This document shows, one piece after another, positions 10,630 through 57,382 of a DNA stretch of 57,382 nt (its first letter is position 1; each line of letters begins with the position of its first letter). The notes below the pieces were generated by a model. The model ran no database searches. It saw only the letters and a list, made by a program, of their open reading frames with translations, and was not told the DNA's origin. A program made the position numbers and the translations under genes. Origin of the DNA: Candidatus Levyibacteriota bacterium (GTDB lineage: Bacteria > Patescibacteriota > Microgenomatia > Levybacterales > UBA12049); contig DAIDHL010000007.1 in NCBI GenBank assembly GCA_027459745.1, positions 1 to 57,382 on the forward strand, read 5' to 3'.

Positions 10630-11324
10630 AGATTTGGTAAAAACAAATAGTTAACATTGGTTATATAACTTCCCCCAGCCTGGGAAGCAGAAACATTTAC
10701 CTTGTAAAGAAATTTGTAGGTTTGAACAGAGTTTATTAATCCATCGTCCAACGTGACTGCTTGAGATAAGTTGGTGGATAGGGGACGAAACATGCTGGAA
10801 TCGCTAAATGAGCTATAACAGGCAGCCAATCCTCCGCTGCAGTTGTACCCTAAGCCATACGTTAAAGTATTACTCCATTGTTCGCTATTGGTAGGGCTGC
10901 AATTGCCGTTATCACAGCTAGTGGGTGGAATAAGCTGCTTATTATTTTGATTAGTTAAGTCTGTATCAGCATAAAGATAAAAGCTTTCAGATGAATCACC
11001 TACAACATTTACTGATAGGGTGTTTTTACGTAGTTGCGCTCGGGTTGGGGCAAGGGCTGAGAAATATAAAAAAGGTAAAGATAGATTTAAATTTATCATA
11101 CCTGTAGTATATTTTTCTAGGACGCTAGATTTATAAAATATAGGACCTTGCTCTTTGGTGGGCAAAGGAACTGTGGGTGTGGGAGATGTAGGATTATTTT
11201 TGGATTTTAGCTGGATATGACCTATATCAATTTGAGCTGATTGTGCACGAGCAATTGGTACAGAAATGAGCAAAAAAAGATAAGTAAAAACTAAAATATG
11301 AATTATGTTTAGTCTCGTCTCCAT
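10626..11324 (-). CDS. Secreted beta-rich protein with Cys-rich central part and a pilin/WxL-like C-terminal strand (GGSYITNVNYLFLPNL)
   Basis: Signal peptide (ILVFTYLFLLISVPIARAQ). Start set at ATG 11324, because TAGAAT (11336..11331) lies 6 nt upstream of it. The track start at 11330 is a GTG inside that spacer. Confidence 0.6.
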   Translation of the reverse strand: METRLNIIHILVFTYLFLLISVPIARAQSAQIDIGHIQLKSKNNPTSPTPTVPLPTKEQGPIFYKSSVLEKYTTGMINLNLSLPFLYFSALAPTRAQLRKNTLSVNVVGDSSESFYLYADTDLTNQNNKQLIPPTSCDNGNCSPTNSEQWSNTLTYGLGYNCSGGLAACYSSFSDSSMFRPLSTNLSQAVTLDDGLINSVQTYKFLYKVNVSASQAGGSYITNVNYLFLPNL

Positions 11325-11420
11325 AGGCACATTCTATGGTAAGCTAAAGCCAGTGAAAATACAAACTAGTATTTATTAAATTCTAGCTTCAAGAGCCTAG
11401 ACTATGTTATAATTTTGCTT

Positions 11421-31599: not shown

Positions 31600-34175
<2,576 letters not shown>

Positions 34176-34203
34176 AATTATGATCTGTAATTAAAAATTT
34201 AAT

Positions 34204-35769: not shown

Positions 35770-35784
35770 GTTGGGTTTTTAGCC

Positions 35785-36261
35785 TTATTGCTTCAGAAAA
35801 TGATCTATTTTGTTTTTTAAAGAATAATCCAGATATTCTCCCTTAAACGTAATAATTGCACCACCCATCACATGCGAATCGATCTTAAATTCAATTAAAG
35901 TATTAAGACCAAATTCAGTTTTAATCAGGCTGGCAATTTTTTGTGTCAGTTCATAGCTTGGTTCAAAAGCGAGAGTTAAGGTAAGTAATTCATTTGACTT
36001 CAAGACCTGAGAAAAATTATCAGCAAAGTTTTTAATAGCCTCGGGTGTTTGTAGATCAAGTTTTTTTTGCTCAATTTGTTGATTTAATACTTCTCCTACA
36101 GAAGCTGGAAGTTTATCTAATAACATGGTTAATGTATCAGTATGGTGTACTTTGTAGAGGTTTTCTAAAACCTCATTCAGTATGTCTTGGATTTTCTCTG
36201 CTTCTGCATGCGTATAAATCACTGCCAGAAGCGGGGATAATGGAGTCAGAGAATTATTCAT
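35785..36261 (-). CDS. atpH: F1 ATP synthase subunit delta (OSCP)
   Basis: Position and size fit. C-terminal IDSHVMGGAIITFKGEYLDYSLKNKI matches the OSCP C-terminal pattern. ATGA overlap with atpF. Confidence 0.8.
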   Translation of the reverse strand: MNNSLTPLSPLLAVIYTHAEAEKIQDILNEVLENLYKVHHTDTLTMLLDKLPASVGEVLNQQIEQKKLDLQTPEAIKNFADNFSQVLKSNELLTLTLAFEPSYELTQKIASLIKTEFGLNTLIEFKIDSHVMGGAIITFKGEYLDYSLKNKIDHFLKQ

Positions 36262-44000: not shown

Positions 44001-47000
44001 ATGCAGGATTTGGGACTACCAATCCAGTTGTGCCATTACAACTTACTGTAGGTGGTACAGCTTCTGTCAATGTTTCGGATGCAGGGACAGCTTTATTAAT
44101 TTCGGCTACCAATACGGCAGGTAGTTGGTCAGCAGCGGCTATCCAATCCGGAACAACTGGTAATGCGACTTTATATTTAGGCAATAGCAGTAATGAAACA
44201 GCAGGGGCAGTACGTTATGACAACGCCAATAATGTTTTGCGATTATTTACTAACGGTACTGACAAATTTGATATCAACAGTACTGGGAACTTGAGTGCAG
44301 TTGGCTCACTTAGCGGATTAACCGGTTTAGCATCATCAGGTACAATTAATTTTTCCGGGTTAGGAACTGGAGCAGTAGTTGCCTCCTCTGGTATATTATC
44401 TGCAGGTACTTTGAGTGTCGGTAATGGGGGGACTAATGCCGTAAGTGTTGGGTCTGCTGGCTCAATTGCTTATAGCACTGGTGCTGCCTATGCATTTACA
44501 GCAGTTGGGTCTACTAATCAGTGTTTGTTGTCTAATGGATCAGGTACGCCAACCTGGGGAAGTTGTGGGGGAAGTAGTTTGTTTGTGAACAATGCAACAG
44601 ACAGTACTTTAACTAGAAGTGGAAGTGGTCCATATACCCTGGGTTTAAATCTAGGTAATGCTAATACCTGGACAGCACTTCAAACCTTCAATGGAGGATT
44701 AACAGTAGCAGGAACAACCAATATCAACACAAGTGGAACGTCCAGTACTAATATAGGAACATCAACCAACACCGGGAATGTAGCTATTGGGAACAGTACA
44801 GGCACATTTGCCTTAACATCCAATGGTGGATTAAACGTAACCACAGGGGGAGCACTAACAGGAGTAGCATCTTTGGATACTATCACCACGAGTGCAACTG
44901 CTTTAACATTTGCCAATGCAGGATCACTAACCGCAAGTGGGACAAATACATTAACACTCAATGGTTCATCCACCGGCAATATTCAGTTTTTCAGTGGAAG
45001 CAATACATTAAGTAGTGCCGGTTCCTTAACTCTAGCGGGGAATATATCAGCAGCCGGAACAACAGGACTAACCTTATCAGGTAATGGTGCGGCTATAAAA
45101 TTTACCGGAGCAGTCAATAATTACAACTCGATTACCACGGCAAATAATAATAATTTGGCTCTTTTACCCAATGGTACTGGAAATGTCGGTATTGGTACCA
45201 CTACACCGGGTTCATTACTGACGGTAGCTGGGAATATTTCAAACATTGCTAATGACAATGCCAATTATGCTCCTACCTATGTTAGTCAAAATAGTGATTC
45301 TAATTTGAATACTCCATATGGTTTATTCGTACAAGGTAATTATGTTTATTTAACCAATGACAATACCACTGGTAAGCTATCGGTTTATAATATATCCAGT
45401 GGGGTTCCTGTGTATGTGGGTCAGAATAGTGATTCTAATTTAAATAGTCCATTAGCAGTAGCGGTGGCAGGTAGATATGCATATGTGCCAAGTGAAGGAA
45501 CAAACAAATTAGTTACTTATGATATATCTACTGGTACACCAGTTTATGTAGGACAAAATAGTGATGCTAATTTGAGCAACCCGTGGGATATAGCCGTAGC
45601 AGGTAGATATGCTTATGTAGCAAGTTATGGTACGAATAAGTTAGTAAGTTATGATATCACTAGTGGGACACCGGTCTATGTGGGACAGAATAGTGATAGT
45701 AATCTATCAAACCCCACAGCGGTTTATGTATCCGGACGATATGCTTATGTGATAAGCAGTGGGACAAATAAATTATCGGTTTATGACATTTCTAGTGGGA
45801 TACCGGTCTATGTGGGACAGAACAGTGATAGTAATATTAGTAGTTCTTCAGGCGTTTATACAGAAGGTAAATATGCTTATGTATTAAATAGTAGTAAGTT
45901 ACTAGTTTATGACATTTCTAGTGGGACACCGGTCTATGTGGGACAGAATAGTGATAGTAATATATCTTCAGCCTTTGGATTTACTGTTTCTGGTAGGTAT
46001 GCCTTTATTAGCACTTCTTTTCCAAGCAACATTGCAGTATATGATCTTTATAGCGGGACTCCTGTCTATATAGGTAAAAATACTGATTCTAATTTGCTTT
46101 ATCCTCGTAGTGTTATGGTTTTTGGTAATAATATTTATGTGGCTAATGGAGGGGATAATAAGGTGGATATATATAATGTGGGGGGAATCCAAACTACTTC
46201 GATTATTGCTCATTCAGCTGAATTAGGCAATTTGAGTATAGACACTAATGCCCAGATTGCTAATAGTTTAAGTATAGGAGGAGGATTGAATATAGGTAGT
46301 GGAGGACTGTACAGCAAAGGCAGTATTTCGACTAATTCTAACATGCTTATTCAAGGCGCAGGTCTTTGTGTCACGAGCAATGCCGCTGGTTGTCAAAAAC
46401 TTTATGCTGCTGGGACGATTGATGCGACAAGTAGCTTGGTAACCGGTGCCGACGTGGCGGAAAATTATGTTTCCTCTCAAACTCTATTGCCCGGAGAAGT
46501 AGTAGCTATGGCCAACGATGGTAATTCTAACGCAGTTGTTGCTACGACCTCTATTAATCAGAATGGATTATTGGGAGTTGTTTCTACCAATCCTGGTGTA
46601 ACAGTTAATTCTGGTGCCCAAATGGATTCTACCCACCCTAATATTTATCCTATTGCTTTGGTAGGACGCATTCCGGTTCGAGTATCAAGTGCTAATGGTC
46701 CAATTAGCGTGGGTGATCCATTGACGTCATCCAGTATACCTGGTGTGGCTGTCAAAGCAACTAAACCGGGGGTAATTATCGGACGCGCGTTGGAGTCATA
46801 TACTAATTCGGATCAATATATTATTGGTACAATCACTGCTTATTCCAATGTGTCATATTATGATCCGACTGCTGCACAATATGCGATTACCAGTAATGGT
46901 TTATTAGCCGTTACTAATGGTAATAGTTCTACTAGTTCAAACACTAATAGTGTCGCAACAGCGAGTGCTATATTGGGAGATGCCACTAGTTCTACACAGT

Positions 47001-47683
47001 CAGCTAGCTTGACTGATCAAGTTACTGCTTTACAACAACAAGTAAGTCAGAACAGTGAACAGATTAGCTCTTTGCAAAAATTGCTTAATCAAGTCGGTTC
47101 AACTTCAGCAAGTTTAGAACAATTGACTTCACTGCTAGCCTCGTCGTCTGCTTTGCCCACGAACTTTGCCACAGGGCAGGATTTGAATATTCAATCTGCG
47201 ACCATATCAGCAGATTTGCAAGTCTTGGGTAAGACCACGGTTAATGATCTAGGGGTCACCGGAAATATCACTACTGGGCTGTTAACCATTGATGGTTTGA
47301 ATGGTAGTATAGATAACATTGCTCAACCATTGAAATTGCAACCAGAAGCCTTAACTACGATTGAGATGGAAGGTGGAAATGTCGTTATTGCTACCAATGG
47401 GGATATTACTACTAAAGGTGTGATTAATGTAGCTAAGGTCAATGTGGATGAATCAAATCTATCAACGGCTAGTGTAGGACAGGGTACAATTAAAGCAGGT
47501 AGTACGTCGGTTATGATTAATACCACTTCTGTGACCGATAAATCACATATCTTTGTCACAGTCAGAGGAAGTAATGCAGTCCCATTATCCGTTGCAACCA
47601 CAGTATCCGGTAAATCATTTAGTGTGGTGATGCCCACAGCTCAATCCTCAGATGTAAAGTTTGATTGGTGGATAGTGAATTAA
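38021..47683 (+). CDS. Giant surface fibre protein (3220 aa): N-terminal excisionase/MerR-type HTH, one TM segment, ~185-aa repeat modules, 7-bladed LVIVD-type beta-propeller, conserved C-terminal modules ending in WWIVN
   Basis: HTH at aa 14-59. TM segment YIILTSAGLVFTLFLLSSLLIF (nt 38537-38602). Recurrent LPxxxGGTN, GQxLxSNGSGAPxW and STSSAKFAF motifs. Seven PVYVGQNSDSNL...YAYV...KLxVYDISSGT repeats. DVAENY...GDPLTSSSIPGVAVKAT module. Terminal KFDWWIVN. Confidence 0.92.
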   Translation: MKDLSLSKESVQKLTVQEAANYLHVSTQTLRRWDESSKLVSIRTQGNQRRYTIKQLRAFKKLLLKKNPRRALQKLAQEANLPQTEEMPISTAEQNLVVPKMDLSYTAEEDLPQEQYLGLSTIAERYAWEQDRLRDLNERIAAYQPPADLISSENLFAQESEEANKKYKNLSKYIILTSAGLVFTLFLLSSLLIFKPELLGASWMNNNLFKSTVAQLGLGKNNFQAVLGAASINPDLQFTVSIPSLFKQETIFSASVSAQQNLTVGQALTANGLSNLNGGITTNNANIDAGVGSVTAANLLYGVKAGSGISISAGQTPTISSTITQTSLQGQTGALTLNAGSGISIDGLKISANDLGSSQNIFKNIAVTGQNTITAGNNNDTLTFAQGAGITLTTDSANKILTIAASAGTGGNGQWLINGTSLYYTGGNIGIGTAAPLGLLDVQGASSITGMAAGIINQTGSGDVFTASSSGVTDFVIKNNGTIQMPGLSTGIAHFDANGILSSSQVALASGDVIGTLPINRGGTNTTYLGQAGAIAYSNGTYYDFTTQGTANQCLVSNGSGAPGWGNCILGVNYWQQGSGAISPGNETNDVLIGNTATSSAAFAFSGVLANTRTASISGNLSIAVPTGVSGSNSLNIFNGGSLSFKVSPGGNSGLNSSFVLNSNGSVQLPNLTTGVAHLSSNGILSSTLIDLTSAADLTGILPISFGGTNTGTLGSAGTVAYSDGTSYNFTVQGNPGQVLISNGSSAPSWVSSGSVGTNYWNEGNGVITPADNSVDLLTGGQSTSSAAFAFIGTTTNTRSASISGNLSLSVPIGNNSGDSVNMLNGGSLSFNLSAGGDSGLASLFKLNSNGSVQFPSLSTGIAHLSNTGVLSSSLVNLAADVTGVLPLANGGTNSNSVGTAGTVVYSNGSSYQFTTAGNLGDVLISNGTGAPTWTSSSSVGVNYWNELAGTVSPKYLSNDLLLGGTSTQSAKFAFLNNSGIGNPTASISGNLALSVPTGANPNAALNVLNGGSLSLQTSPGGDNGLNTALYLAAGGSVGIGNTNPKAKLDISGAVRLGAAGGNNDILNTSAAVGAPSGDLYWGNEVLCNSTGNCVGSGGTVGGNGTANYLAKFTGTFNLGNGDIYDNGNIGIGTTNPLALLHIEGGNTGGNAVAIFNQIGSSNNDIFTASSAGITKFTIANDGTITDKKYSTGLAHINSNGSFSSSAVDLTSSDVTNILPIAKGGTGNMSLGSYGGVAWADTVDNEIAYTAAATSQGQVLVWGPFGYPVWQNSSSVGANDWQIIGGALSPINNANDFLLGSSSTSSAVFAVTKMSYNDPSYIFHSNLSLTVPGGSSGTQTLQILNGSSLTTQTANVGNTSFINDVFDINNNGTISIGQSGGSSTLNVGGTGNFTSNLSIGASGKTALLLTNSGSNTGLTIAGTNGNVDLYNSGSQILGTDNNFSINGGINNGNAALSVNQNGALTNDIFTASSSGVTKFTIANDGTITAGGTAYATGSIGIAHFSASGVLSSGPVHLESNEVTGTLGINDGGTNTTSIGLGGTVVYSDGTRYQFTGVGTTGQCLISNGSGAPAWTNCGSGIWNQASGAIYANNSTQDLLLGGNSTSSAKFAFLNDNSGIPVASISANSTNNATYLSGAGVLGTTNTQTLTLGSSSTGNIIVNPRNSAVGGYLAPATDNVTDLGATGSARFRNLFLGPGSLHIQCTVTEGCGSVSQLYDYALGVNPANNNFAFRVNGNEEVSINSAGTLGLAGASATGGNYITSSNFNVTTAGAVNAASTITGTNINGTTGINSGIGAGTQRIDNNGNLVNIGNITASGTINFTGLGNGVLQASSGLLSATTVGVSSGGTGVSSVGAAGSLAYSNGSSYSFTTAGTTGQCLISNGSSAPTWGSCGSGGGGGTSLFADGNGSIYPLNATEDLFIGGTSTSSAKFAFLNNNTGTPVASISANSGNNATFISGDGYISATNKQNLNFGNNLTYNSTGNLLFNTNGVGYAGFGTTNPVVPLQLTVGGTASVNVSDAGTALLISATNTAGSWSAAAIQSGTTGNATLYLGNSSNETAGAVRYDNANNVLRLFTNGTDKFDINSTGNLSAVGSLSGLTGLASSGTINFSGLGTGAVVASSGILSAGTLSVGNGGTNAVSVGSAGSIAYSTGAAYAFTAVGSTNQCLLSNGSGTPTWGSCGGSSLFVNNATDSTLTRSGSGPYTLGLNLGNANTWTALQTFNGGLTVAGTTNINTSGTSSTNIGTSTNTGNVAIGNSTGTFALTSNGGLNVTTGGALTGVASLDTITTSATALTFANAGSLTASGTNTLTLNGSSTGNIQFFSGSNTLSSAGSLTLAGNISAAGTTGLTLSGNGAAIKFTGAVNNYNSITTANNNNLALLPNGTGNVGIGTTTPGSLLTVAGNISNIANDNANYAPTYVSQNSDSNLNTPYGLFVQGNYVYLTNDNTTGKLSVYNISSGVPVYVGQNSDSNLNSPLAVAVAGRYAYVPSEGTNKLVTYDISTGTPVYVGQNSDANLSNPWDIAVAGRYAYVASYGTNKLVSYDITSGTPVYVGQNSDSNLSNPTAVYVSGRYAYVISSGTNKLSVYDISSGIPVYVGQNSDSNISSSSGVYTEGKYAYVLNSSKLLVYDISSGTPVYVGQNSDSNISSAFGFTVSGRYAFISTSFPSNIAVYDLYSGTPVYIGKNTDSNLLYPRSVMVFGNNIYVANGGDNKVDIYNVGGIQTTSIIAHSAELGNLSIDTNAQIANSLSIGGGLNIGSGGLYSKGSISTNSNMLIQGAGLCVTSNAAGCQKLYAAGTIDATSSLVTGADVAENYVSSQTLLPGEVVAMANDGNSNAVVATTSINQNGLLGVVSTNPGVTVNSGAQMDSTHPNIYPIALVGRIPVRVSSANGPISVGDPLTSSSIPGVAVKATKPGVIIGRALESYTNSDQYIIGTITAYSNVSYYDPTAAQYAITSNGLLAVTNGNSSTSSNTNSVATASAILGDATSSTQSASLTDQVTALQQQVSQNSEQISSLQKLLNQVGSTSASLEQLTSLLASSSALPTNFATGQDLNIQSATISADLQVLGKTTVNDLGVTGNITTGLLTIDGLNGSIDNIAQPLKLQPEALTTIEMEGGNVVIATNGDITTKGVINVAKVNVDESNLSTASVGQGTIKAGSTSVMINTTSVTDKSHIFVTVRGSNAVPLSVATTVSGKSFSVVMPTAQSSDVKFDWWIVN
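39731..44600 (+). repeat. Array of ~6-7 divergent ~185-aa repeat modules inside the 3220-aa gene
   Basis: Modules restart at about nt 39731 (GVNYWQQGSGAISP), 40289 (GTNYWNEGNGVITP), 40841 (GVNYWNELAGTVSP), 41848, 42760, 43720 and 44574. Each contains the STSSA(A/K)FAF and LPxxxGGTN...YSNGxxYxFT...SNGSGAPxW blocks. Boundaries are approximate. Confidence 0.75.
45266..46186 (+). repeat. Seven tandem ~43-aa LVIVD-like beta-propeller blades with partly identical DNA
   Basis: A repeat unit of ~129 nt. The 40+ nt string ccggtctatgtgggacagaatagtgatagtaat recurs almost exactly at ~45672, ~45803 and ~45929. Confidence 0.8.
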
Positions 47684-48123: not shown

Positions 48124-50514
48124 TTATTTACTACTTTTTTCCTGTAGGTAGGATACCCAGAAGATGATGTTGAGCAACGATAGAATTAGGAAGGGAGCAG
48201 TGTTCAACCATCCAAATTGAAAGGCAAACAAAACTTCTGCAAGTAATGAGAAGAGCAGGAATGCTTCAAATAATGTACCAAAAGCTTCTTTACATAGAAA
48301 CATGAACAAATGAAGTTTGGTATGTTGGTGTTGGGGTTTTTTACTTAACGTAATGTTTAGAACCTGATTTTGAGCTTCATAGTGTTCTAGTTTTTCTTCT
48401 ATGGGTTCATAACCAGGCTTTAATATCCTTAGTGAAAGATTTTTAAAATCAGGAATCTGGGCATAACAGATCCCGAGAGCATTGGTTTTACTGGCAAAAA
48501 TGACGATATCTTCTGAGTTTATTAAATAAATTTCCGCATCGCTAACTGGTTTATTATCTTCGTCTTGCAAGATCAGTCGGTAAATCAGGCCTTTTTTGCC
48601 ATGACGGCGCAAGAAGTGCAGCAGTGTGCGAGGCGTCATATGAGTTTTGGCAAAAAAGGCCAGGAAGCTCAAACTTAAAGGAATAAGTATAATGCCCAAT
48701 AAGAAGTAATAGCTTTGTCGGGAACCAATTAAAAAGATTTCCGTGGACAAAGTATTTAAAAAGTCCGAGGTTGTTTCTTTTAAGAAGCGGAAGAAATAAC
48801 TGATATTCCAGTAATCCTGATGCAAACTTACCTGTGGGAACCGTTGTTGCGGATTGATGCCGATAGAAAAAATAATCGTTTTTTCTTCGTGGCCAAATGC
48901 GCTAATGATAAGTCTGTACTGACCAGCTGGGAAAGGGAAATAAACAGTTCCATCTGAGCGTGTAAATAATGGATTTTTAATTTGCGGATAAAGAGTTTGC
49001 AACGGCATATAATCATGTTTGGTGAAGTCATAGAATTCGATATAAACCCTGGCATCATCTAAAGGAGTGATATTGTCATTATCATACACATGCAGTGGTT
49101 GTAGAACATTTATTGATCCCACATTTTGTTGCGTGATGATGCCTGTGGAGGTCATAGATTTTATTGCCAAATCATATAAACCAGGGTTTAATGGCGAGGC
49201 CATGGATGCGACGTAAGAATTGGGTGACCTTTCATACATACGTGTCGTATATGTCGGTGCTAAAACCGTATTTCCACCGTTATTGATTTGTCCAACGGGC
49301 TGTATCCTGGCTTCCACCAGATTTAAATCTTTGGCATAAGAAAAAGCGAAAAAGATGGAGTAGGGATTATTGGTAGGTAAAATAAAAGTCTGGTTGTTAT
49401 CTGCTCCGGTCAGGTTAAAAATGTTTTTATTGATACTGATACCATCTGCGTTTAAAAGCAATGAGGAAAGACTAATAACAGGGATATTGGCAGTACTGGG
49501 TGTATGTACAGAAAAAGTATCGCGATTAATTATTTTACCATTTCTATCCAAAGCGGTGATTTCAATGTAGTAAGTCGTATTCGGCTGTAAAGGTTGGAGA
49601 GTGACAACGTCCTGTCCATGAGCTTGCATAGTTTGTGATTGAACTAAGTTGTTTAATTGAGTGCCATATTTCACGCTTAGTTTATCAGTTTGGGTAGTTT
49701 GAATAAGCAGTTGTGTTAAGGTAGGTTGTAGATTGGTAACGTCTACAGTCAAAATTCCTTTTCTGGACGGTACTGGTGTCGGCGTCGGCGTGATTATAGT
49801 AGGTGTGGGAGTAGCCGGTACAGGAGTAGCCGTGGGCTGGACTGAAGTTGGACCAGGTGCAGAAGTAGGAGTGGCAGTAGGTAATGGGGTTGGGGTTAAC
49901 GTTGGTGTACTAGTGGGAGTCGGCGTATAGGTAGGAGTGGGTGTGACATTAGCATTATATAGATAGGTGGTCGTTGTAGTAGCAGTAGGCATGGTTACAT
50001 AAGAATTAGTCAAATCGGCCGTAGTGTTAATAGGTACAGGATTGGAAGTAGTATAGTCAGAATTAGTTATCAATTGAAACTGGACTATTTGATTTACTAA
50101 TTGGGGGTCAAAATTAGCGATACTCCAGGTGATTGTACGATTGACAGGATCAATAACAGGCGTAGTACCATTCACAGCATTGGTAGCACTGCCTACCACA
50201 TAATCTGTGACGTGGGTCACACCTCCATCTGGACTATCATCACTATAATTGACCACAATATTGGTGTTGGTAACAAAGGCATTATTATTCTTTCCTCCAT
50301 AAGTAACTGTGTAGGTGATCAAAGTTCCTTGGGGAATAGTTTGGCCAGCTTGGTCAGAAGTTATAGAAATGGAATAATCGTTGGTAGTTGGAGGAATCTG
50401 TCCGTTTACAGTTATCTGATAAGAGGTTGCGAAACTTTTAAATTCGAAAATAAAAAACCCAAATATAATTAAGCAAGTGAGCAGAAAAATCTTGACCAAA
50501 CGTTTTTTATTCAC
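48124..50514 (-). CDS. Large multi-domain membrane protein (796 aa): DUF11-like repeat, Pro/Thr linker, FN3-like and CarboxypepD_reg-like beta-sandwiches, several TM helices
   Basis: Signal/TM at the N-terminus. ITYTVTYGG...NRTITWSIANF. (TP)n linker of ~55 aa. LQPNTTYYIEITALDRNGK. DARVYIEFYD...SDGTVYFPFPAGQYRLIISAFGHEE. Internal and C-terminal hydrophobic helices. GTG start. Confidence 0.7.
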   Translation of the reverse strand: MNKKRLVKIFLLTCLIIFGFFIFEFKSFATSYQITVNGQIPPTTNDYSISITSDQAGQTIPQGTLITYTVTYGGKNNNAFVTNTNIVVNYSDDSPDGGVTHVTDYVVGSATNAVNGTTPVIDPVNRTITWSIANFDPQLVNQIVQFQLITNSDYTTSNPVPINTTADLTNSYVTMPTATTTTTYLYNANVTPTPTYTPTPTSTPTLTPTPLPTATPTSAPGPTSVQPTATPVPATPTPTIITPTPTPVPSRKGILTVDVTNLQPTLTQLLIQTTQTDKLSVKYGTQLNNLVQSQTMQAHGQDVVTLQPLQPNTTYYIEITALDRNGKIINRDTFSVHTPSTANIPVISLSSLLLNADGISINKNIFNLTGADNNQTFILPTNNPYSIFFAFSYAKDLNLVEARIQPVGQINNGGNTVLAPTYTTRMYERSPNSYVASMASPLNPGLYDLAIKSMTSTGIITQQNVGSINVLQPLHVYDNDNITPLDDARVYIEFYDFTKHDYMPLQTLYPQIKNPLFTRSDGTVYFPFPAGQYRLIISAFGHEEKTIIFSIGINPQQRFPQVSLHQDYWNISYFFRFLKETTSDFLNTLSTEIFLIGSRQSYYFLLGIILIPLSLSFLAFFAKTHMTPRTLLHFLRRHGKKGLIYRLILQDEDNKPVSDAEIYLINSEDIVIFASKTNALGICYAQIPDFKNLSLRILKPGYEPIEEKLEHYEAQNQVLNITLSKKPQHQHTKLHLFMFLCKEAFGTLFEAFLLFSLLAEVLFAFQFGWLNTAPFLILSLLNIIFWVSYLQEKSSK

Positions 50515-50595
50515 ATTTTTAGCATACTAGTTTCATTCGCTATCCACAAGGGAAGAGGTTATGTTTAATATATAAAATTATGCAATAATAGCAGT

Positions 50596-51183
50596 ATGAA
50601 AAAAATTATAATTGGGTTTTTTGTCAGCTTAGTTTTATTTATTTTGATTATTGCTGGTTATATCTATTGGCAGCTTACAAGGAAGGACATTCCTAGTGTA
50701 TTATCTGAGCGGGAAAAACAGCAGGCGATAACTAAAATTGTAGGACACAGTCCAGTGTACTCGCCTAAAGAAGTTACTGGTATTACATACAAAGGTCATT
50801 CTGTCAGTTTTGTTTATCCCAGTAATGCTACTCTTCGTGCAAAAACTATGCCTAATCCTTTAGATGATTCTATTTTGTGGCATAGCATCACACCTTATCT
50901 ATTCGTGACAGTGGCTACTTATCCGGTTAATAGCCTAAATCAGTTGATTTATGATCCCAATGTCAATCTGCGTTTGAAAGATTCATCTTACGTGCAAAAA
51001 AACATTACTTGGCAAGGCACAACGGGTTTGGAATTTACTAAATCAAGTGGCGGTTTGGAGCAATGTACCTTTTTCTTGATCAATAGACGTGTATATTCCT
51101 TCGTAGTGACAGGAGATGCAGCGGATGATGTTACTAATGCAATGTATAACCTACTTACTTCCGCAAGAATCGTGAGTAAATAA
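50596..51183 (+). CDS. Membrane-anchored hypothetical protein (195 aa)
   Basis: N-terminal TM segment (IIIGFFVSLVLFILIIAGYIYW) followed by a beta-rich domain. Converges on and overlaps the 3' end of the next gene by 29 nt. Confidence 0.55.
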   Translation: MKKIIIGFFVSLVLFILIIAGYIYWQLTRKDIPSVLSEREKQQAITKIVGHSPVYSPKEVTGITYKGHSVSFVYPSNATLRAKTMPNPLDDSILWHSITPYLFVTVATYPVNSLNQLIYDPNVNLRLKDSSYVQKNITWQGTTGLEFTKSSGGLEQCTFFLINRRVYSFVVTGDAADDVTNAMYNLLTSARIVSK

Positions 51184-52096
51184 TCCTAATTAGAATTACT
51201 AGAATAATAATGGCCAATATGCAGGTACCTGCATAAAGTGGATAATTTGCTAAATACAGAAAGGTTATAGATTGAATAATTTTCTGGTTAGTTTTGCCGT
51301 AATGTAAAGACAATTGCGCAGTATACACACCTGGCCAAAGTTTTGTTGTATTGGGGTTTAGGTTAATTTGATAATCGCGCGAAGATTGAGGCAGCGTCAA
51401 TAGAGAATCCTGGTTGATAATATTTTTAACTATTTGGTGATGAAACATATCATTGACCTGCAAAAGTCCATAAGGTGTCACGTCCACGTTACCCGTATTT
51501 ACCAGCTGAAAACGGGCAGTGGTAGGGAAATCAGACCAGGTATTATTAAGATTCAAAAATGCTAAATTAGCTTTCTCTATTTCTTTACCTGTATTAGTGC
51601 GGACAAAAATGAGACTGATTAAGGAGCCCTTAATGGCAATACCCTGGGTACTTGTATTGGCTTCAATATTACCCATAACTGCGCCATAATGACCGCCTGG
51701 GGTTAGTTGATTTTTATTAATTAAAACAAAGACTTTTGTCGAGGAATGAGGCTGAATAGTAATGATGTTACGACTAAAAGACATCCAGTTAGACAGTTCA
51801 AATGGTTTGGTTGATTGTGCAGCATTATTTAAGTAATTGATTTTATATCCTTCTTCCAGAGAAGTAAGGTTATTGGCCGCTAAGTCAATTGTAACGACAC
51901 TGGAAGTCTCATTGGTGTAAGTCAGCAAAGCTTCTGGCAAGTCATTGGCCAAGTCTAGTTGGACGATAGAAGGGCTGACAGTGATAGCATTTTGTGGTGC
52001 TGTTTGAGCATAGATTGGAGAAGGAAAAAAGACTAAGGATAAAATTGAAAGGGCAAGTATAGAACAAAGCTTTTGCCATACGTGATGGAAATTCAT
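51155..52096 (-). CDS. Signal-peptide protein with DUF916/DUF3324-like architecture and a C-terminal TM anchor; paralog of the 9658..10629 product
   Basis: ITVSPSIVQLDLAND...LLTYTNETSSVVTIDLAANN. LTPGGHYGAVMGNIE. QLVNTGNVDVTPYGLLQV. Anchor LYAGTCILAIIILVILIRII. Start set at ATG 52096; the track start at 52123 is TTG. Confidence 0.6.
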   Translation of the reverse strand: MNFHHVWQKLCSILALSILSLVFFPSPIYAQTAPQNAITVSPSIVQLDLANDLPEALLTYTNETSSVVTIDLAANNLTSLEEGYKINYLNNAAQSTKPFELSNWMSFSRNIITIQPHSSTKVFVLINKNQLTPGGHYGAVMGNIEANTSTQGIAIKGSLISLIFVRTNTGKEIEKANLAFLNLNNTWSDFPTTARFQLVNTGNVDVTPYGLLQVNDMFHHQIVKNIINQDSLLTLPQSSRDYQINLNPNTTKLWPGVYTAQLSLHYGKTNQKIIQSITFLYLANYPLYAGTCILAIIILVILIRIIYSRFLRK

Positions 52097-52157
52097 AGAT
52101 ATATCGATTATAAACAACGACAACGCTTTTGATAATAGCAGCTATCTGTTAAAGATT

Positions 52158-53288
52158 CTATTTTTTAGCAAATATGCGGCGAACACTCAAAATAAGAGAG
52201 CGTATAGAAAAAGTAAGTCCCAGCAAAATTAACAGAGCTATAATAACTACTCCAGCAATTATTTTCCAAGGGAAAATAAAGAAAGTGGTTGTAAGTTGAT
52301 ATGGAACGTCACGTTGATCGGTTTGAACTACCAAGATTGCCGTGGCTGTATATTGCCCTATACGCATATCTAGCAATTTATTAAAATGAATGACGGGAGT
52401 TTTTTCAATTATGCCACTTGAATTGTATACTGGTTGTCCATTTTGCATCTTAGTTTCGTAAGTAATAAATGAATCATCCCAATCTACTGTATATGTTCGA
52501 GTTCCGCCCGGAAGTGTTGCCCCACCGCTTGGATTTATATTTAGCGTGGCTACGCTTTTACCTTGCCAATCTTTGATAAAAATATTACCAATTGGGCGTA
52601 GATGTACATTGCCTTCATTCTTAAAATCCATTCTAAAGGTTACTGGAGGATATTCATAAAAGCCTTGATCAGTATCAAAGCGTGTGAAAGAAGCAGTATA
52701 ATTAACGCCTCCTTTTTGAGCTACAAGAAGAATAGGCACAGCTACAGAGCCTACTAAACTTGCTCCAGTTTGATGTAAACCTGGAGGTTCGGTAGAAAAG
52801 ACTATGGCCCAATAATACCCGTATGCTGCATCTTTGGGAATTGTTATTTGGAAAGGTACTGTAGTCCACTGTTGAGGAGGGGTTACAACTTGATAGGAAT
52901 TAAATTTGAGCCAATGAGCAGAATCATCTCCAGGAGGGAAGTTACTTAGGTGAATATTGCCGGTGGTATCATTGGGGTCAATACGTTTAATTTGTATTTT
53001 CAAAATATTAGAACTGGTAGAATTGTTGAAAAGTTTTACTTCTTCATTAAGCGTACTTCCAGGACTAGTAGTAAAGTCAAAAACCGTTGGTCGTACTTGA
53101 TAGTTAAAAGCAGAAGGTGTAATGGGAACGATAGTAGGGGTAGGGGGTAAGGTGGGCGAAGCTTTAAAAGTCTTGCTTGAAGTTAAAGTCGGGTTAGTAG
53201 TGATTGCAAATACTTGAGTGAGAGGTAAAAAAAAGAAAATAGATAAGCAAGGCAAAACCATGCTAGATATATAGATCAGCTTTTTCAT
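52158..53288 (-). CDS. DUF916/DUF3324-like cell-surface protein with a C-terminal TM anchor (376 aa)
   Basis: Signal peptide. YQVRPTVFDFTTSPGSTLNEEVKLFNNSTSSNILKIQIK. ITIPKDAAYGYYWAIVFS. Second half DFKNEGNVHLRPIGNIFIKDWQGKSVATLNINPSGGATLPGGTRTYTV. Anchor IIAGVVIIALLILLGLTF plus a basic tail. Confidence 0.6.
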   Translation of the reverse strand: MKKLIYISSMVLPCLSIFFFLPLTQVFAITTNPTLTSSKTFKASPTLPPTPTIVPITPSAFNYQVRPTVFDFTTSPGSTLNEEVKLFNNSTSSNILKIQIKRIDPNDTTGNIHLSNFPPGDDSAHWLKFNSYQVVTPPQQWTTVPFQITIPKDAAYGYYWAIVFSTEPPGLHQTGASLVGSVAVPILLVAQKGGVNYTASFTRFDTDQGFYEYPPVTFRMDFKNEGNVHLRPIGNIFIKDWQGKSVATLNINPSGGATLPGGTRTYTVDWDDSFITYETKMQNGQPVYNSSGIIEKTPVIHFNKLLDMRIGQYTATAILVVQTDQRDVPYQLTTTFFIFPWKIIAGVVIIALLILLGLTFSIRSLILSVRRIFAKK

Positions 53289-53314
53289 AACTCAGGTGTA
53301 TTGTAACAAAAAAA

Positions 53315-54457
53315 TTAGAAATTACCAGCGGCTACTACATTAAGAGTATCAGTGTAGTCAGTAGCGGCAGGAGTATTAACTAGAGCACCAGCCATGACAT
53401 AGAGTAGGAAAGTATCACTGCTTGCAGGAGCCAAATCAGCTGCCAAGGGGACTAGGCTGGTACTAAATGTTCCGGCATAATATGCTCCAGATGCTTCAGA
53501 ATGAGTATAACCACTATCTACCGTAGTACCACCGGTACCGGTTGCATAACCACCATAACAGGTAGAAGCAGACTGGTTGGAACAAGCAAAGAAATTAGAA
53601 CCCTGGTTGTATGCTTGACCAGTACCACCAGCCCCATTGTAGATAGTACCACCAGAAGAAGCAGAGCCTAAGTGAGCAGCAGTAGATGAAAGGCTTTGAA
53701 TCCAGGCAGTCCAGCCATTAGCAGCGTTAGTACTAACAGTACCTGTGATAGCTGTTCCAATGGTAGGATTAGTGGATCCAGTTAAAACATTAATAGTGCC
53801 AAGAGCGACTGTATTCCCAGAGAGGCTAAAGGAGAACTGAGGTCCAACAGTAGCAGTGACAGCGATGTTACCAGGGCTAGCGATAACGGCTGTAGCATAG
53901 CCAACTGTTGAACCAGAAGGGGAGGTGGCGATACTACCACCAGTATAGTTATTAGCCGCAGCGGGTAAGGTGATACCAGCGCCACTGTCTGAGAAGTAAA
54001 AACAATTCTCTTTACTGGCAGTCATTCCACCAGTGTATGTGAAGACTAAAGTGGAAGATGTAGCAGAACTTGCATGGGCACCTGTAATAGTGACTCCAGT
54101 TGTAGAGACGCCAAAGATAGTGGAGGGCAGGTTAGTAATAGAGGTAGTCCAGTTGGCGGCAGTAGTATCTCCATTGACAAAAGCATTTGGTGTAGTAGGA
54201 AGAGTTAAGGTCAAAGTTGTACTACTGGATTCAGTTCCATTTGGCTCATAACAAACCAAGCCTGTTTTTACAGCGGCTCCGGTAGTCATGACATCAAATC
54301 TGACGAAGGCATTTGGGACTTGAGTGGTAGCGTGTACCTGGATATTGACACTTACTAATAAGAAAATGACTACAGCAATAACTGCTAAATAACGTAAAGT
54401 TAACTTAACTTTGGCAGCATTTAAATTTTTAGACGATAGGAGCAGGTTTTTTTTCAT
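53315..54457 (-). CDS. Secreted Gly/Thr/Ser/Ala-rich beta-sandwich protein (WxL / pilin-like C-terminal strand)
   Basis: Signal/anchor segment. QFSFSLSGNTVALGTINV...STNAANGWTAWIQS. C-terminal AATDYTDTLNVVAAGNF. Paralogous to the C-terminal half of the 349-aa protein. Confidence 0.6.
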   Translation of the reverse strand: MKKNLLLSSKNLNAAKVKLTLRYLAVIAVVIFLLVSVNIQVHATTQVPNAFVRFDVMTTGAAVKTGLVCYEPNGTESSSTTLTLTLPTTPNAFVNGDTTAANWTTSITNLPSTIFGVSTTGVTITGAHASSATSSTLVFTYTGGMTASKENCFYFSDSGAGITLPAAANNYTGGSIATSPSGSTVGYATAVIASPGNIAVTATVGPQFSFSLSGNTVALGTINVLTGSTNPTIGTAITGTVSTNAANGWTAWIQSLSSTAAHLGSASSGGTIYNGAGGTGQAYNQGSNFFACSNQSASTCYGGYATGTGGTTVDSGYTHSEASGAYYAGTFSTSLVPLAADLAPASSDTFLLYVMAGALVNTPAATDYTDTLNVVAAGNF

Positions 54458-54674
54458 ATACTAAGCCATTAGATCCATTAATACATAATTAAATTAGCTT
54501 GTCAAGCTTATATTGCATGAGGTTAATCTAATAAAATCTATGTACATCTATATCTTTATGTATCCTTGGAGAATTTTTTAACATGATACATGTGATATAA
54601 GACTGATAATTCATCAGGCATAGATCCAGCTAAAAAACAAACTAGTTAGTATATTAGAATATATATTAATATAT

Positions 54675-55724
54675 CTAAAAAGTTGCTGAGGCAATTACAA
54701 ATAAGATATCCGTATAATCTGAAGCAGAGGGAGTTGTATTACTAGCTTTTGCTTTCATTACAAAAGTTCCCTGACCGCTGGTAACAGGTTGACCGCTTGA
54801 ATCAAAAATGGCAGTAGGAATTTGAGTTAGAGTGCCGACATTGTTAGATGAGCCGTTAAAAGGTGAATCAATTTCCATAGGGCCTCCCGAGGTTTGGGTG
54901 ACAGATGATCCCTGGATTCCACATGCCTCAGTGGCGGTAGATAGATTGCCTGTAATAGCACTTATTGTATGAGAAGTTGACGCACTGTAGAGGCCTGAAC
55001 TTGTATCCGAAATCCACACAAGTCCGCCATTGTTGGCATTGGTACTGATAGTACTGGTGATGCTGGGAGAACTTACTACACTACCGGGATTTAGATTGCC
55101 CATGTTAACACTATAAACAGAGAGCGAAAAAGAAAACTGTACATTACTCGTTGCCACACTGGCTGTCGGGCCAAAACCTGTTTGAGTAAAATTACCTTGT
55201 CTGGCTGCCACTTTTACGGTATAAGTAGTTGCGGGTGTCAAACCAATTATGGTTATACCACTTCCACCACCCCAGGCTGAGTATGTTTGCCAGACAGGAG
55301 TTGTATTTATAGTATTATCGGCCTGTACGTATTTAGTTGTGCTGACAAATCCGTCGGGAGAAATGGCAATTAAAAATTGTGAATCGGAAGGGTTATTTGC
55401 GTTGTTCAGTACCAAATTTAGTTTGTTATACCAATTAGAGGGATTGGTAAAAGTAGGTGCCGGAGGAACATATGCTTGTTGTACATATATGATGCCTCCA
55501 TTAGCTTGATAGTTGGTAGAAGATAGTCCTCCTTGTTCTACTTGACCGAGTGTTCCATTGATCTTATAGTTAGTTGAGCTAGAGTTGGCTGTGCCTCCTC
55601 CTCCGAACGTGTAATCGCGAATCGAATAATTACTAGATGATGGAAAAGATGCAAAGACTATATCAAAATAAACACTATATCCAAATATAACAAATGCTAA
55701 CAAAATGATAAATAATCTCTGCAT
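54675..55724 (-). CDS. Secreted protein with an FN3-like segment and the same C-terminal beta-sandwich (SDYTDILFVIASATF)
   Basis: Signal peptide. GLTPATTYTVKVAARQG (FN3-like). VQFSFSLSVYSVNMGNLNPG...STNANNGGLVWISD. Terminal strand similar to that of the 380-aa protein. Confidence 0.6.
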   Translation of the reverse strand: MQRLFIILLAFVIFGYSVYFDIVFASFPSSSNYSIRDYTFGGGGTANSSSTNYKINGTLGQVEQGGLSSTNYQANGGIIYVQQAYVPPAPTFTNPSNWYNKLNLVLNNANNPSDSQFLIAISPDGFVSTTKYVQADNTINTTPVWQTYSAWGGGSGITIIGLTPATTYTVKVAARQGNFTQTGFGPTASVATSNVQFSFSLSVYSVNMGNLNPGSVVSSPSITSTISTNANNGGLVWISDTSSGLYSASTSHTISAITGNLSTATEACGIQGSSVTQTSGGPMEIDSPFNGSSNNVGTLTQIPTAIFDSSGQPVTSGQGTFVMKAKASNTTPSASDYTDILFVIASATF

Positions 55725-55829: not shown

Positions 55830-57382
55830 ATGAAACTGCTCAAAAAAGGTTTTGTGAAAAGCCAATTAATTAATTGGGGAATTTTCTGCACACTTTTCTT
55901 AATCATAACTACGTTTTTATCCTTTCCTAACAATGCAAACGCTACGGCAGGTATAAATCAGCAAATAAATTTCCAAGGAAAATTGGTAAATCCTGACGGA
56001 ACAAACGTGACCGATAGTAGTTATTCAATTACTTTCACTTTGTACAACGCAGCTACCGGGGGGACATCGCTAGGTACAGAGACGGATAGCGTTACCACCA
56101 GCAATGGTATTTTTCAGGTAACTTTTTCTTCCATGCTCTCGGGGGTAAATTTTAATCAATACCCAATTTATTTGGGTATCAAAGTCGGGAGTGATGCGGA
56201 GATGACTCCGCGTGTGTTGTTTACCGCTGTGCCATATGCTTTTGAAGCTCAACAAGTGAATGGTTTAACCGTAACGGATAACGGTGGGAACACTCTTAAC
56301 ATCGCAGCCAGTAAAACCTTTACGGTCAATAACTCTTTGACTTTAAGTGGTACTGATAGTACTTCTTTTAGCTTTCCTTCTACTACTGGCGGAGTAGTCG
56401 TGACCAGTAACGCTCCAACACAAACTGTAGGTGGAACTTTGACTTTCTCTGGATACACTAGCGCAAACGGTGGCTTATTATATGCAAATACATCGGGATT
56501 GGTGTCGGAGACGTCTGCAGGGACGACCAATGCTTGTTTGTTATCCAATGGGTCGGGAGGGTTTAGCTGGGGTAGTTGTACATTAGGAGGGGGAACAAAT
56601 CTTTGGCAACTCAATAGCAACGCAATCTCGCCTGGAAATAGCACTTACGATTTACTTTTAGGAGCTACTAGCACGTCAAGTGCTAAATTTGCTTTTAATA
56701 ACACTCTGGGTGATTTCACACAAAATAGTTCCGATATCACTGGGACAGCTTTTGCTATCAATGCCAATGGGATTACCACGGGAACTGCTGCCAATATTTC
56801 AGCTAATGGTTTAACCACCGGGAATGGACTCTTACTCGGATCAACCAGTACAGGCTTAACCACAGGGAACTTACTTGATGTCAACTTCACAGGTAATTCA
56901 GCCTTTACGGGACAAGTAGGAAGTATAGCATGGAATCCCACCAGTGCCACCACTGCCACGGGAGACCTTCTTGATTTGAACGTAGGAGCGAATGGAACAC
57001 TGAATAATATTTTCAATGTACAGAATGCTGGATCATCAGTCTTCTCAGTAAGTCAATCTCAGATCACTGCTAATCTTCCAGTGCAATTCACTTCAGCCGG
57101 TAACACCAGTTTTGCGTATGATATTAACTTTACCAACCCAACCAGTTCCAATATTACCTCGGCTGCACCTCTAGCTATCTATGCTGGAGAAACATTTAAC
57201 TCAAGTAATCTTACTCTAGGTACTTACAACACAGGCAGTGTCGTCATAGATTCCCAAGCCTTAACAGTAAATAACGCTGCCAGCATCTCAGGTCAACTGT
57301 CGGTAGGAACCACTAGTCAGGATGCAGCCAACACAGGGAATTTTTACTTAACCAATTCTTCTACCTTTGGTAAAGCTTTAGC
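55830..57382 (+). CDS. Third giant fibre protein, 5' partial (more than 517 aa, runs off the window end)
   Basis: Hand translation from ATG 55830 gives MKLLKKGFVKSQLINWGIFCTLFLIITTFLSFPNNANATAGINQQINFQGKLVNPDGTNV... with no stop up to 57382. It contains CLLSNGSGGFSWGSC and DLLLGATSTSSAKFAF blocks like the 3220-aa protein. It is absent from the ORF track because it has no stop. The minus-strand ORFs at 56249-57016 are its antisense. Confidence 0.85.
   Translation, partial: MKLLKKGFVKSQLINWGIFCTLFLIITTFLSFPNNANATAGINQQINFQGKLVNPDGTNVTDSSYSITFTLYNAATGGTSLGTETDSVTTSNGIFQVTFSSMLSGVNFNQYPIYLGIKVGSDAEMTPRVLFTAVPYAFEAQQVNGLTVTDNGGNTLNIAASKTFTVNNSLTLSGTDSTSFSFPSTTGGVVVTSNAPTQTVGGTLTFSGYTSANGGLLYANTSGLVSETSAGTTNACLLSNGSGGFSWGSCTLGGGTNLWQLNSNAISPGNSTYDLLLGATSTSSAKFAFNNTLGDFTQNSSDITGTAFAINANGITTGTAANISANGLTTGNGLLLGSTSTGLTTGNLLDVNFTGNSAFTGQVGSIAWNPTSATTATGDLLDLNVGANGTLNNIFNVQNAGSSVFSVSQSQITANLPVQFTSAGNTSFAYDINFTNPTSSNITSAAPLAIYAGETFNSSNLTLGTYNTGSVVIDSQALTVNNAASISGQLSVGTTSQDAANTGNFYLTNSSTFGKAL

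Follow-up and report, generated by a model that had tools for sequence, protein, structure and literature searches.

A probable Pam-type pilus operon, with chaperones related to WxLIP, in a Levybacteria-type genome of the candidate phyla radiation

The window, i.e. the whole stretch of DNA analyzed, is 57,382 nucleotides long (contig DAIDHL010000007.1 of assembly GCA_027459745.1, Candidatus Levyibacteriota). A locus within it, termed locus B, extends from position 48124 to 55724. It is probably a Pam-type pilus operon, i.e. an operon for a filament assembled by donor-strand exchange without an usher, in a bacterium of the candidate phyla radiation (CPR) that is nearest to Levybacteria (Microgenomatia). 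The assignment to the Pam group is drawn from four lines of evidence, namely bridging between profiles, the predicted fold, the logic of the motifs and synteny. An initial annotation, made from the sequence alone, placed four co-oriented genes at 51155–55724 and interpreted them as a WxL/DUF916-like surface cluster. The open reading frame (ORF) boundaries agree exactly; all four genes are encoded by the minus strand and are separated by 217, 26 and 34 bp. The system however reaches beyond the four genes, to position 48124. The WxL/DUF916 interpretation is half right, as shown below.

Electron cryo-microscopy (cryo-EM) of filaments of Ca. Mycosynbacter amalyticus, a parasitic member of the Saccharimonadia, showed that their pilins are PamA and PamB (Troman et al., bioRxiv 10.64898/2026.03.03.709456; PDB 25PZ, 25QA). 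In both pilins an N-domain of nine strands is joined by a linker strand to a truncated immunoglobulin (Ig)-like C-domain, and the filament assembles by donor-strand exchange. Further products of the pam operon are a tip pilin (PamT), a pair of PapD/FimC-like chaperones that each end in a transmembrane (TM) helix (PamC and PamD), and an RbmA-like anchor (PamR). Homologues are found in Saccharimonadia and Microgenomatia, in a neighbourhood with ATP synthase genes and a central tail-fibre-like gene. No CPR-specific surface filament had a solved structure before the Pam pili, which presumably make the first contact with the host cell. The kind of pilus is thus described, both there and in the NCBIfam models NF058578, NF058579 and NF058581, and the earlier statement that the system appears undescribed is outdated. 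Locus B is a divergent example of this kind of pilus, which was described in 2026. The homology of its chaperones with WxLIP and the proposed donor-only anchor family are new with respect to the preprint.

Predicted shaft pilin, likely tip subunit and donor motif

The 380 amino acid (aa) protein displays a signal peptide, an N-terminal beta-sandwich at approximately aa positions 45–192, a linker NIAVTATVGPQ at positions 196–206 (nt 53840–53872) and a C-terminal domain at positions 207–380. The C-terminal end is ATDYTDTLNVVAAGNF, and cysteines are at positions 69, 152, 292 and 300. The AlphaFold2 (AF2) model, with a mean predicted local distance difference test score (pLDDT) of 83.8, has exactly nine strands within positions 49–192, a non-strand segment at 193–207 and a beta domain at the C-terminal end. 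The linker segment NIAVTATV is read as the donor strand and the C-terminal domain as its acceptor.

The 380-aa sequence itself gives no match in Pfam, NCBIfam or the PDB sequences. Its family consists of 46 homologues, among them proteins from metagenome-assembled genomes of Saccharimonadales. In a search of 5.8 billion proteins the profile of this family reaches a family of 362-aa proteins (P0183–P0199), with E-values of 1e-5 to 1e-16. Seven of eight scanned members of the 362-aa family pass NF058581, "Pam pilus system pilin subunit", with 61–76 bits against a cutoff of 55. Alignment of the 380-aa family with this Pam_pilin_C-positive family by hhalign gives a probability of 99.35% (E-value = 6.5e-21) over 304 columns, which cover both domains. 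By profile comparison, the 380-aa protein is predicted to be a two-domain pilin of the Pam superfamily. Invariant columns of its family alignment fall into two regions, the linker (D196, Q197, A202, V204) and the final strand (ATDYTDT.TVVAAG.F), both of which are also conserved in Pam pilins (bioRxiv 10.64898/2026.03.03.709456). Local Foldseek matches of the AF2 model include the PapG pilin domain 2wmp_B (probability 0.98) and a FimD-tip subunit.

The initial annotation had noted related C-terminal halves in the two secreted proteins rich in glycine, threonine and serine. This holds for the 380-aa and 349-aa proteins, which have 34% identity over 205 aa (BLASTP, E-value = 1e-6); the family profiles align with a probability of 99.6% (hhalign, E-value = 1.6e-24) over approximately 160 columns. 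The terminal sequence (A/S)DYTD(T/I)L.V(V/I)A...F, also reported earlier, is present at the ends of both proteins.

The 349-aa protein displays a signal peptide, an S-x-N-Y/G-rich N-terminal module at positions 6–79 (nt 55488–55709), an FN3-like middle domain for which the fn3 matches are weak, and a Pam-type pilin C-domain at positions 194–349 (nt 54678–55145). The N-terminal module matches NF058579, CPR_pilus_PamT, at model positions 5–78 (E-value = 3.3e-12), with 46 bits against an equivalog cutoff of 240. The same model matches 24 of the 55 members of the 349-aa family. The C-domain of the family aligns with the Pam_pilin_C-positive family with a probability of 91% (hhalign, E-value = 1e-6).

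A strict donor motif was defined as the heptad of the linker, [IVLAT]x[IV][TSNQG][AG][TSQI][VI]. It is found at the linker in 43 of the 46 members of the 380-aa family and in 13 of the 17 members of the Pam_pilin_C-positive family, but in none of the 55 members of the 349-aa family. The two membrane-anchored chaperone families described below show it in 5 of 46 (376-aa) and 1 of 45 (322-aa) members, and the background is 0.27 per 1000 aa. A looser regular expression was unspecific (background 0.7 per 1000 aa) and was not used. PamT has been proposed to possess an acceptor domain and no donor strand (bioRxiv 10.64898/2026.03.03.709456). Because the C-domain is present and the donor motif is absent, the 349-aa protein is likely the tip subunit.

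The gene order is conserved. GTDB species representatives were scanned with the pilin alignment; this gave 149 confirmed relatives, and 79 loci were analyzed. The pilin gene is directly followed by a chaperone-type gene in 65 of the 79 loci, and in 54 it is preceded by a tip-type gene, which is then the first gene of the operon. Both types of chaperone paralogue are present in 48 loci. Named homologues are from Levybacteria, Saccharimonadales and Patescibacteria. Many of the GTDB records that carry the operon are TPA_asm entries (L002, L004–L006, L009, L014 and others) titled "uncultured Gammaproteobacteria", "Bdellovibrionales" or "Pseudomonadales"; as taxonomy, these titles look unreliable.

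Membrane-anchored chaperone-like proteins and their kinship with WxLIP

The 376-aa and 322-aa proteins each have an N-terminal hydrophobic segment of signal type and a C-terminal TM segment. They are similar to each other by BLASTP (E-value = 2e-8), and their family profiles align with a probability of 100% (hhalign, E-value = 6e-47) over 262 columns. In the AF2 model of the 376-aa protein (pLDDT 87), a pair of beta-sandwich domains precedes a helix at positions 341–374. The earlier description of two signal-peptide proteins with two Ig-like halves and a C-terminal TM anchor is thus borne out by the model and the TM segments. The 376-aa protein also has a disordered stretch rich in proline and threonine after the signal peptide, and an insertion of about 30 aa at positions 272–300 that is missing from the 322-aa paralogue. 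The true start of the 322-aa protein is probably the ATG at codon 10.

The best Foldseek match of the 376-aa model is the WxLIP of E. faecium (9i25_C, 9i1y; E-value = 4e-10), followed by CfaA (2.7e-9), CsuC (1.5e-8) and RbmA (1.6e-8). The sole significant PDB sequence match of the chaperone family profile is likewise EfmWxLIP1 (9i25_C, 9i1y_A; E-value = 7e-5). Searches of the PDB sequences with the single pilin and chaperone sequences gave nothing useful, and the chaperone family profile alone reached WxLIP. The Pfam model PF06030 (WxLIP_PGBD, formerly DUF916) stays below threshold with the window proteins themselves, with E-values of 0.0056 and 0.02 and scores of 17.1 and 15.4 bits against a cutoff of 27.3. 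It matches 29 of the 46 members of the 376-aa family (best E-value 5e-8) and 14 of the 45 members of the 322-aa family (best 2.7e-5). PF11797 (DUF3324) is matched by only one of 45 relatives.

For comparison, six WxLIPs and ten WxL domains were taken from WxL clusters of Enterococcus, Lactococcus, Lactiplantibacillus, Bacillus and Melissococcus plasmids. The six Firmicute WxLIPs align with the 376-aa family with a probability of 98.4% (hhalign, E-value = 4e-15, 279 columns) and with the 322-aa family with a probability of 98.2% (E-value = 5e-14, 249 columns); both domains are covered in each case. Negative controls are clean, i.e. 0.7–2.9% for WxLIP with the pilin families and at most 3.2% for WxL with the chaperone families. 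In the profile alignment, IPKDAAYGYYWAIVFS is aligned with the WxLIP segment MPKEKFDGQILSGIQV, which is the conserved MPK..F.G.ILGGI. The parallel with the conserved G..GGI.F region of DUF916, drawn in the initial annotation, therefore stands. The hhalign, family profile and Foldseek results all show that the TM-anchored proteins are DUF916-like and are true relatives of WxLIP. The 376-aa and 322-aa proteins are genuine full-length homologues of WxLIP (DUF916-DUF3324-TM). WxL and DUF916 are not mentioned in the Pam preprint (bioRxiv 10.64898/2026.03.03.709456).

The 102034–102477 region of plasmid CP069367.1, which is labelled "Klebsiella pneumoniae", contains an unannotated WxLIP with 60% identity to WxLIP1 of E. 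faecium. The record is probably mislabelled or derived from Enterococcus.

The relation to PapD is seen at the level of fold. The Pfam PapD models PF00345 and PF02753 do not match the window proteins or the 46 and 45 relatives; Foldseek gives fold-level matches to CfaA, CsuC and PapD complexes. The 322-aa protein was also considered as an equivalent of PamR and rejected, as it aligns with PamR-like proteins with a probability of 4.6% (hhalign) and is a clear paralogue of the 376-aa protein. In locus L080, a member of the 376-aa chaperone family (hidden Markov model (HMM) E-value = 1e-64) is directly downstream of three tandem Pam_pilin_C-positive pilins, and the chaperone family therefore serves bona fide Pam pilins. 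In WxLIP, AlphaFold2 predicts that a loop becomes a strand which completes the WxL beta-sandwich (PMC10599100). By analogy, this strand insertion would be the same principle as chaperone capping.

The kinship with WxLIP raises the alternative that locus B is a WxL-type cluster, in which the TM-anchored WxLIP-like proteins permanently hold one or two secreted partners in a small, non-covalent and non-polymerising surface complex, and no filament is formed. The TM-anchored proteins are true WxLIP homologues, WxLIP has been proposed to bind and stabilise WxL by strand insertion (PMC10599100), the gene order is similar, and filaments have been observed in M. amalyticus and not in the present lineage. 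The partners however are not WxL domains. The earlier reading of the secreted proteins as WxL-like is not supported: PF13731 does not match either of the two secreted window proteins or 46 scanned family members, the W-x-L tripeptide does not occur in the 349-aa or 380-aa protein, and hhalign of the ten WxL domains with the three pilin families gives a probability of at most 0.3%. No WxL chain is among the top 50 Foldseek matches of the 380-aa model. The proposal that the pilin C-domain is a WxL domain was rejected on the negative hhalign result with its clean controls. The suggestion that the composition of the locus mirrors the csc/WxL clusters holds for the gene order, i.e. subunits first and TM-anchored protein last, but not for the partners. 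Further, the homology of the 380-aa protein with Pam_pilin_C-positive pilins covers its full length, and kin of these pilins in M. amalyticus form filaments solved by cryo-EM (bioRxiv 10.64898/2026.03.03.709456). A donor motif spread over acceptor-only, donor-plus-acceptor and donor-only proteins would also be purposeless in a static 1:1 complex. A WxL-type complex is thus improbable, and a Pam-type pilus operon is the preferred interpretation.

Readings of the proteins as TasA/camelysin, SCPU or amyloid (FapE) are unsupported, as they gave nothing beyond one chance-level match to FapE.

Anchor candidate, neighbouring genes and locus A

The 796-aa protein is the last gene product of locus B (Table 1). 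Its mature N-terminus after the signal peptide, TSYQITVNGQIPP at aa positions 30–42 (nt 50389–50427), is a donor-strand motif. The motif is followed by beta domains, a linker rich in proline and threonine and an FN3-like region, and hydrophobic segments are at positions 601–619, 744–762 and 770–788. A pilin acceptor domain is not found in the protein. The pilin linker motif is also seen at the start of homologues, as QYDIAVTATVPP or QSVTVSGIVVP. All six family members in the analyzed loci have the motif, either at positions 33–43 or directly behind a pilin N-domain; two of these homologues have a whole pilin N-domain ahead of the motif (A1 HMM E-values = 6e-48 and 5e-31). The family and the operon are found together in L001, L015, L018, L028, L034 and L078.

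An exhaustive search for the 796-aa family gave 632 cluster representatives, and classes were counted among the best 150 of these. All 47 homologues of the long class begin with the pilin N-domain and linker (A1 HMM E-values of 1e-29 to 1e-51). Of 98 homologues of the short class, 39 show the strict motif at positions 15–75, compared with 0.07 per 1000 aa in the rest of these proteins, and the remaining ones have mostly obvious variants of the motif. From the motif, the hydrophobic segments and the lack of an acceptor domain, the 796-aa protein may be inferred to act as a donor-only terminator and membrane anchor, the role that is given to PamR in the preprint.

PamR-like ORFs are present in 20 of the 79 loci, which are of Saccharimonadia type (NF058578, E-values as low as 5e-42). 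These proteins have a DYVVTATVPAP motif behind an N-terminal TM segment, and a C-terminal TM segment. The PamR-like proteins of Saccharimonadia loci (L012:8261–9295, L058:8736–9749 and others) start with a His-rich sequence, HTGxLLHHKHTSYR, ahead of the TM segment and donor-like motif. Two tandem paralogues are often present. No usher family is matched among the operon and flanking proteins, and the TM segments of the 796-aa protein are alpha-helical, with no beta-barrel signature.

Table 1. Positions of the genes of locus B, the adjoining fibre gene and locus A
Feature	Position	Strand	Basis
349-aa predicted tip subunit (PamT-like)	54675–55724	minus	NCBIfam PamT module, C-domain homology, synteny
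380-aa predicted shaft pilin	53315–54457	minus	AF2, hhalign, donor motif
376-aa membrane-anchored chaperone-like protein, WxLIP/PapD type	52158–53288	minus	AF2, Foldseek, hhalign
322-aa second membrane-anchored chaperone-like protein, paralogue of 376-aa protein	51155–52123	minus	hhalign
195-aa conserved small protein with N-terminal TM segment	50596–51183	plus	homologues in same place in 14 loci
796-aa predicted donor-only terminator and membrane anchor	48124–50514	minus	donor motif, hydrophobic segments; function inferred
Fibre gene, >517 aa, runs off window end	55830–57382	plus, divergent	N-terminal module conserved
Locus A: 323-aa distant member of TM-anchored chaperone superfamily	9658–10629	minus	hhalign
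Locus A: 234-aa secreted protein, possible Pam-like subunit	10626–11330	minus	weak HMM match

The operon extends further in the closest loci (L001, of Levyibacteriota, L015, L018 and L034), where genes for homologues of the 195-aa protein, on the opposite strand, and of the 796-aa protein follow. In the window, there is an overlap of 29 nt between the 195-aa gene and the 3′ end of the 322-aa gene. The 195-aa protein has no family or PDB match (Pfam, NCBIfam, PDB), and homologues occupy the same position in 14 loci. The AT-rich gap of 217 bp between the tip and shaft genes (54458–54674) shows no significant RNA structure (z = -0.21), and a scan for promoter and terminator consensus sequences is at shuffle level. 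The gap may contain an internal promoter for the shaft pilin gene.

Locus B is flanked by giant fibre genes, as initially annotated: a 3220-aa ORF at 38021–47683 on one side and, on the other, the fibre gene that starts at 55830. The latter encodes a protein rich in glycine, threonine, serine and asparagine with a signal or anchor sequence. The co-localisation is conserved and not random, with homologues of this fibre gene adjoining the operon in 43 of the 79 loci. The fibre family shares only an N-terminal module (about 20–300 aa); protein lengths are 380–2380 aa, and the gene is divergent upstream or downstream of the operon. Examples are L002:1034–7717, L005:449–7495 and L023:15015–18401.

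The initial annotation suggested that the locus might be the anchoring or assembly machinery of the fibres, through the WxLIP-like and small beta proteins. Besides the co-localisation, a tail-fibre-like protein is central in the Pam neighbourhood (bioRxiv 10.64898/2026.03.03.709456), and a 1103-aa protein in L080 ends in a Pam pilin C-domain, therefore large proteins can be mounted on such pili. The fibre proteins of the window, however, have no Pam C-domain (family HMMs at E ≤ 10 find only the four locus B proteins) and no donor motif. Complete homologues of the adjacent fibre gene in the loci are also without the C-domain, and no protein of at least 450 aa with this domain is found among the 79 loci. 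The giant proteins have a hydrophobic segment of their own behind a cytoplasmic-type N-terminal domain, which suggests independent anchoring. There is thus no indication of fibre machinery, and this reading is quite unlikely. The co-localisation is real, but attachment of the fibres to the pilus is unsupported.

The 1103-aa protein (L080:4134–7445; HMM E-value for the C-domain = 2.5e-45) is encoded upstream of the three tandem Pam pilins and one chaperone, and it looks like an adhesin-type tip subunit. The 3220-aa ORF (plus strand) and a 1483-aa ORF at 4567–9018 (minus strand) both start with DNA-binding modules of cytoplasmic type and end in ...[FL][DN]WWIVN. The former has a helix-turn-helix domain of MerR/excisionase/BldC type at aa positions 13–60 and a hydrophobic segment at approximately 172–195, after which the fibre follows. 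The latter has two Xer/phage-integrase N-terminal SAM-like domains at positions 8–220 and, further on, a Peptidase_G2/IMC autocleavage domain. It is an odd arrangement for a giant surface fibre to be joined by a TM segment to a DNA-binding head. Genes for the beta, gamma, alpha and delta subunits of an F-type ATP synthase are at 31877–36261 (minus strand), approximately 13 kb from locus B.

That the genes of locus B are unrelated neighbours, whose resemblance to pilus proteins is a generic beta-sandwich similarity, is very unlikely: Ig-like folds give numerous weak Foldseek matches (arrestins, CEP192, ciliary proteins) and several family links are under curated thresholds, but the four-gene order recurs in dozens of species-level genomes, the loci are from GTDB species representatives at 30–50% identity so that synteny is not an artefact of near-identical genomes, the profile links are specific by their negative controls, and the invariance within the pilin alignment is concentrated in the linker and the C-terminal strand.

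Locus A (9658–11330) was initially taken to be a reduced copy of locus B. This applies in part. The 323-aa protein, with a signal peptide and a TM segment at its C-terminus, is distantly related to the chaperones and aligns with the 322-aa family with a probability of 95% (hhalign, E-value = 3e-8, 254 columns) and with the 376-aa family with 58%. It is not detected by the chaperone family HMMs. The 234-aa protein is unlike the locus B pilins, with no BLASTP or hhalign similarity to them. Its C-terminal 77 residues (positions 154–230) weakly match the HMM of the Pam_pilin_C-positive family (E-value = 6e-4, window ORF set). The 234-aa protein is possibly a single-domain Pam-like subunit of about the size of PamT, a weak assignment, and locus A may be a minimal pair of subunit and chaperone, which is weakly supported.

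Proposed assembly model and comparison with known systems

A model of assembly can be proposed for locus B. All products would be exported by Sec. The 376-aa and 322-aa chaperones would supply a complementing strand to the incomplete C-terminal Ig-like domain of subunits that have just been exported, and so cap it. The 349-aa protein, with an acceptor C-domain and no donor strand, would be at the tip. The 380-aa pilins would polymerise behind it, with the linker between the two domains of each pilin (NIAVTATV) inserted into the C-domain of the subunit ahead. The polytopic 796-aa protein, with a donor strand at its mature N-terminus and no acceptor, would stop growth and tie the filament to the membrane.

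Several points weigh against a Pam-type pilus operon. Neither pilin of the window matches NF058581, CPR_Pam_pilin_C, at E ≤ 1 (cutoff 55 bits), and this model matches only 2 of the 46 members of the 380-aa family, weakly (E-value = 0.0018). Whole-model Foldseek matches of the 380-aa pilin are also weak, the best having an E-value of 1e-4. The link to Pam is a profile-level bridge, in which the NCBIfam Pam models stood proxy for the PamA–T sequences of M. amalyticus. A PamR homologue is not in the window, where no ORF matches the PamR-like HMM at E ≤ 10, and NF058578 has no match among eight scanned window proteins. Donor-strand insertion, chaperone capping and the order of subunits are predictions from sequence; for a filament formed by donor-strand exchange, the conserved linker motif and C-terminal strand give indirect support. 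The Levybacteria-type system is known from genes alone, and it is in M. amalyticus that filaments were observed.

The most complete form of the proposal is a complete usher-less strand-exchange pilus with an acceptor-only tip, a donor-plus-acceptor shaft and a donor-only polytopic terminator that replaces PamR, and with chaperones that share ancestry with WxLIP. It is advanced tentatively, its chance being somewhat less than even. If it is true, the Pam pili of CPR bacteria and the WxL clusters of Bacillota would be branches of a single ancient system of membrane-tethered chaperones in monoderms, and WxLIP would be a strand-complementing chaperone or holder, not just a binder of peptidoglycan or host. 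The window shows the Pam system in a genome of Microgenomatia type that is barely reachable by sequence searches with the M. amalyticus proteins. Beyond the preprint, the chaperones belong to the same protein family as WxLIP of enterococci, lactobacilli, Listeria and Bacillus, which gives a testable mechanistic model for WxL clusters, themselves still poorly understood. The family of donor-first polytopic membrane proteins suggests a means of pilus termination and anchoring where PamR is absent.

Like the Pam system of M. amalyticus, that of locus B is restricted to CPR bacteria, is Sec-exported and has no usher. In the pilin, nine strands make up the N-domain, the linker and the truncated Ig-like C-domain follow, and homology to Pam_pilin_C-positive proteins is seen at the profile level. 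Each chaperone consists of two Ig domains and a TM helix at the C-terminal end, the tip has the PamT N-terminal module, and ATP synthase and fibre genes are nearby. Unlike that system, locus B is in a lineage of Microgenomatia type and not in Saccharimonadia, and it has one shaft pilin in place of PamA, PamB and PamE. The window pilins are under the Pam_pilin_C cutoff, and an FN3 domain is inserted in the tip protein, which scores 46 bits where PamT requires 240. The window has no PamR-like ORF, and the 796-aa polytopic protein with its N-terminal donor motif is in the equivalent place. The PamR-like anchors of Saccharimonadia share with it a donor motif and a TM anchor.

The WxL clusters (cscA/cscB/cscC) of Enterococcus, Lactiplantibacillus, Listeria and Bacillus consist of WxLIP (DUF916-DUF3324-TM) together with short and long WxL proteins (PMC10599100; PDB 9i1y, 9i25). 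They are similar to locus B in having WxLIP-homologous TM proteins, monoderm hosts and a gene order with the subunits first. In locus B, however, the partners are two-domain pilins with a donor strand and not WxL domains, there are two WxLIP-like paralogues per operon, a small LPXTG protein is not present, and the hosts are CPR bacteria instead of Bacillota. WxL complexes are described as peptidoglycan-bound surface complexes and not as filaments. The RbmA protein of Vibrio cholerae has the same architecture of two beta-sandwiches as the 376-aa model.

The chaperone-usher pili of Gram-negative bacteria (Pap/Fim, class 5 CFA/I with CfaA and archaic Csu with CsuC) differ from the locus B system in having an outer membrane and an usher. 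The locus B chaperones are tethered by a TM segment and not soluble, the donor is the linker between domains rather than an N-terminal extension (with the exception of the 796-aa protein), and the pilin has an extra N-terminal domain. The two have in common the chaperone fold, a C-domain that is locally similar to PapG/Fim, a C-terminal strand with an aromatic residue and alternating hydrophobic residues, and the logic of tip, shaft and terminator through donor strands.

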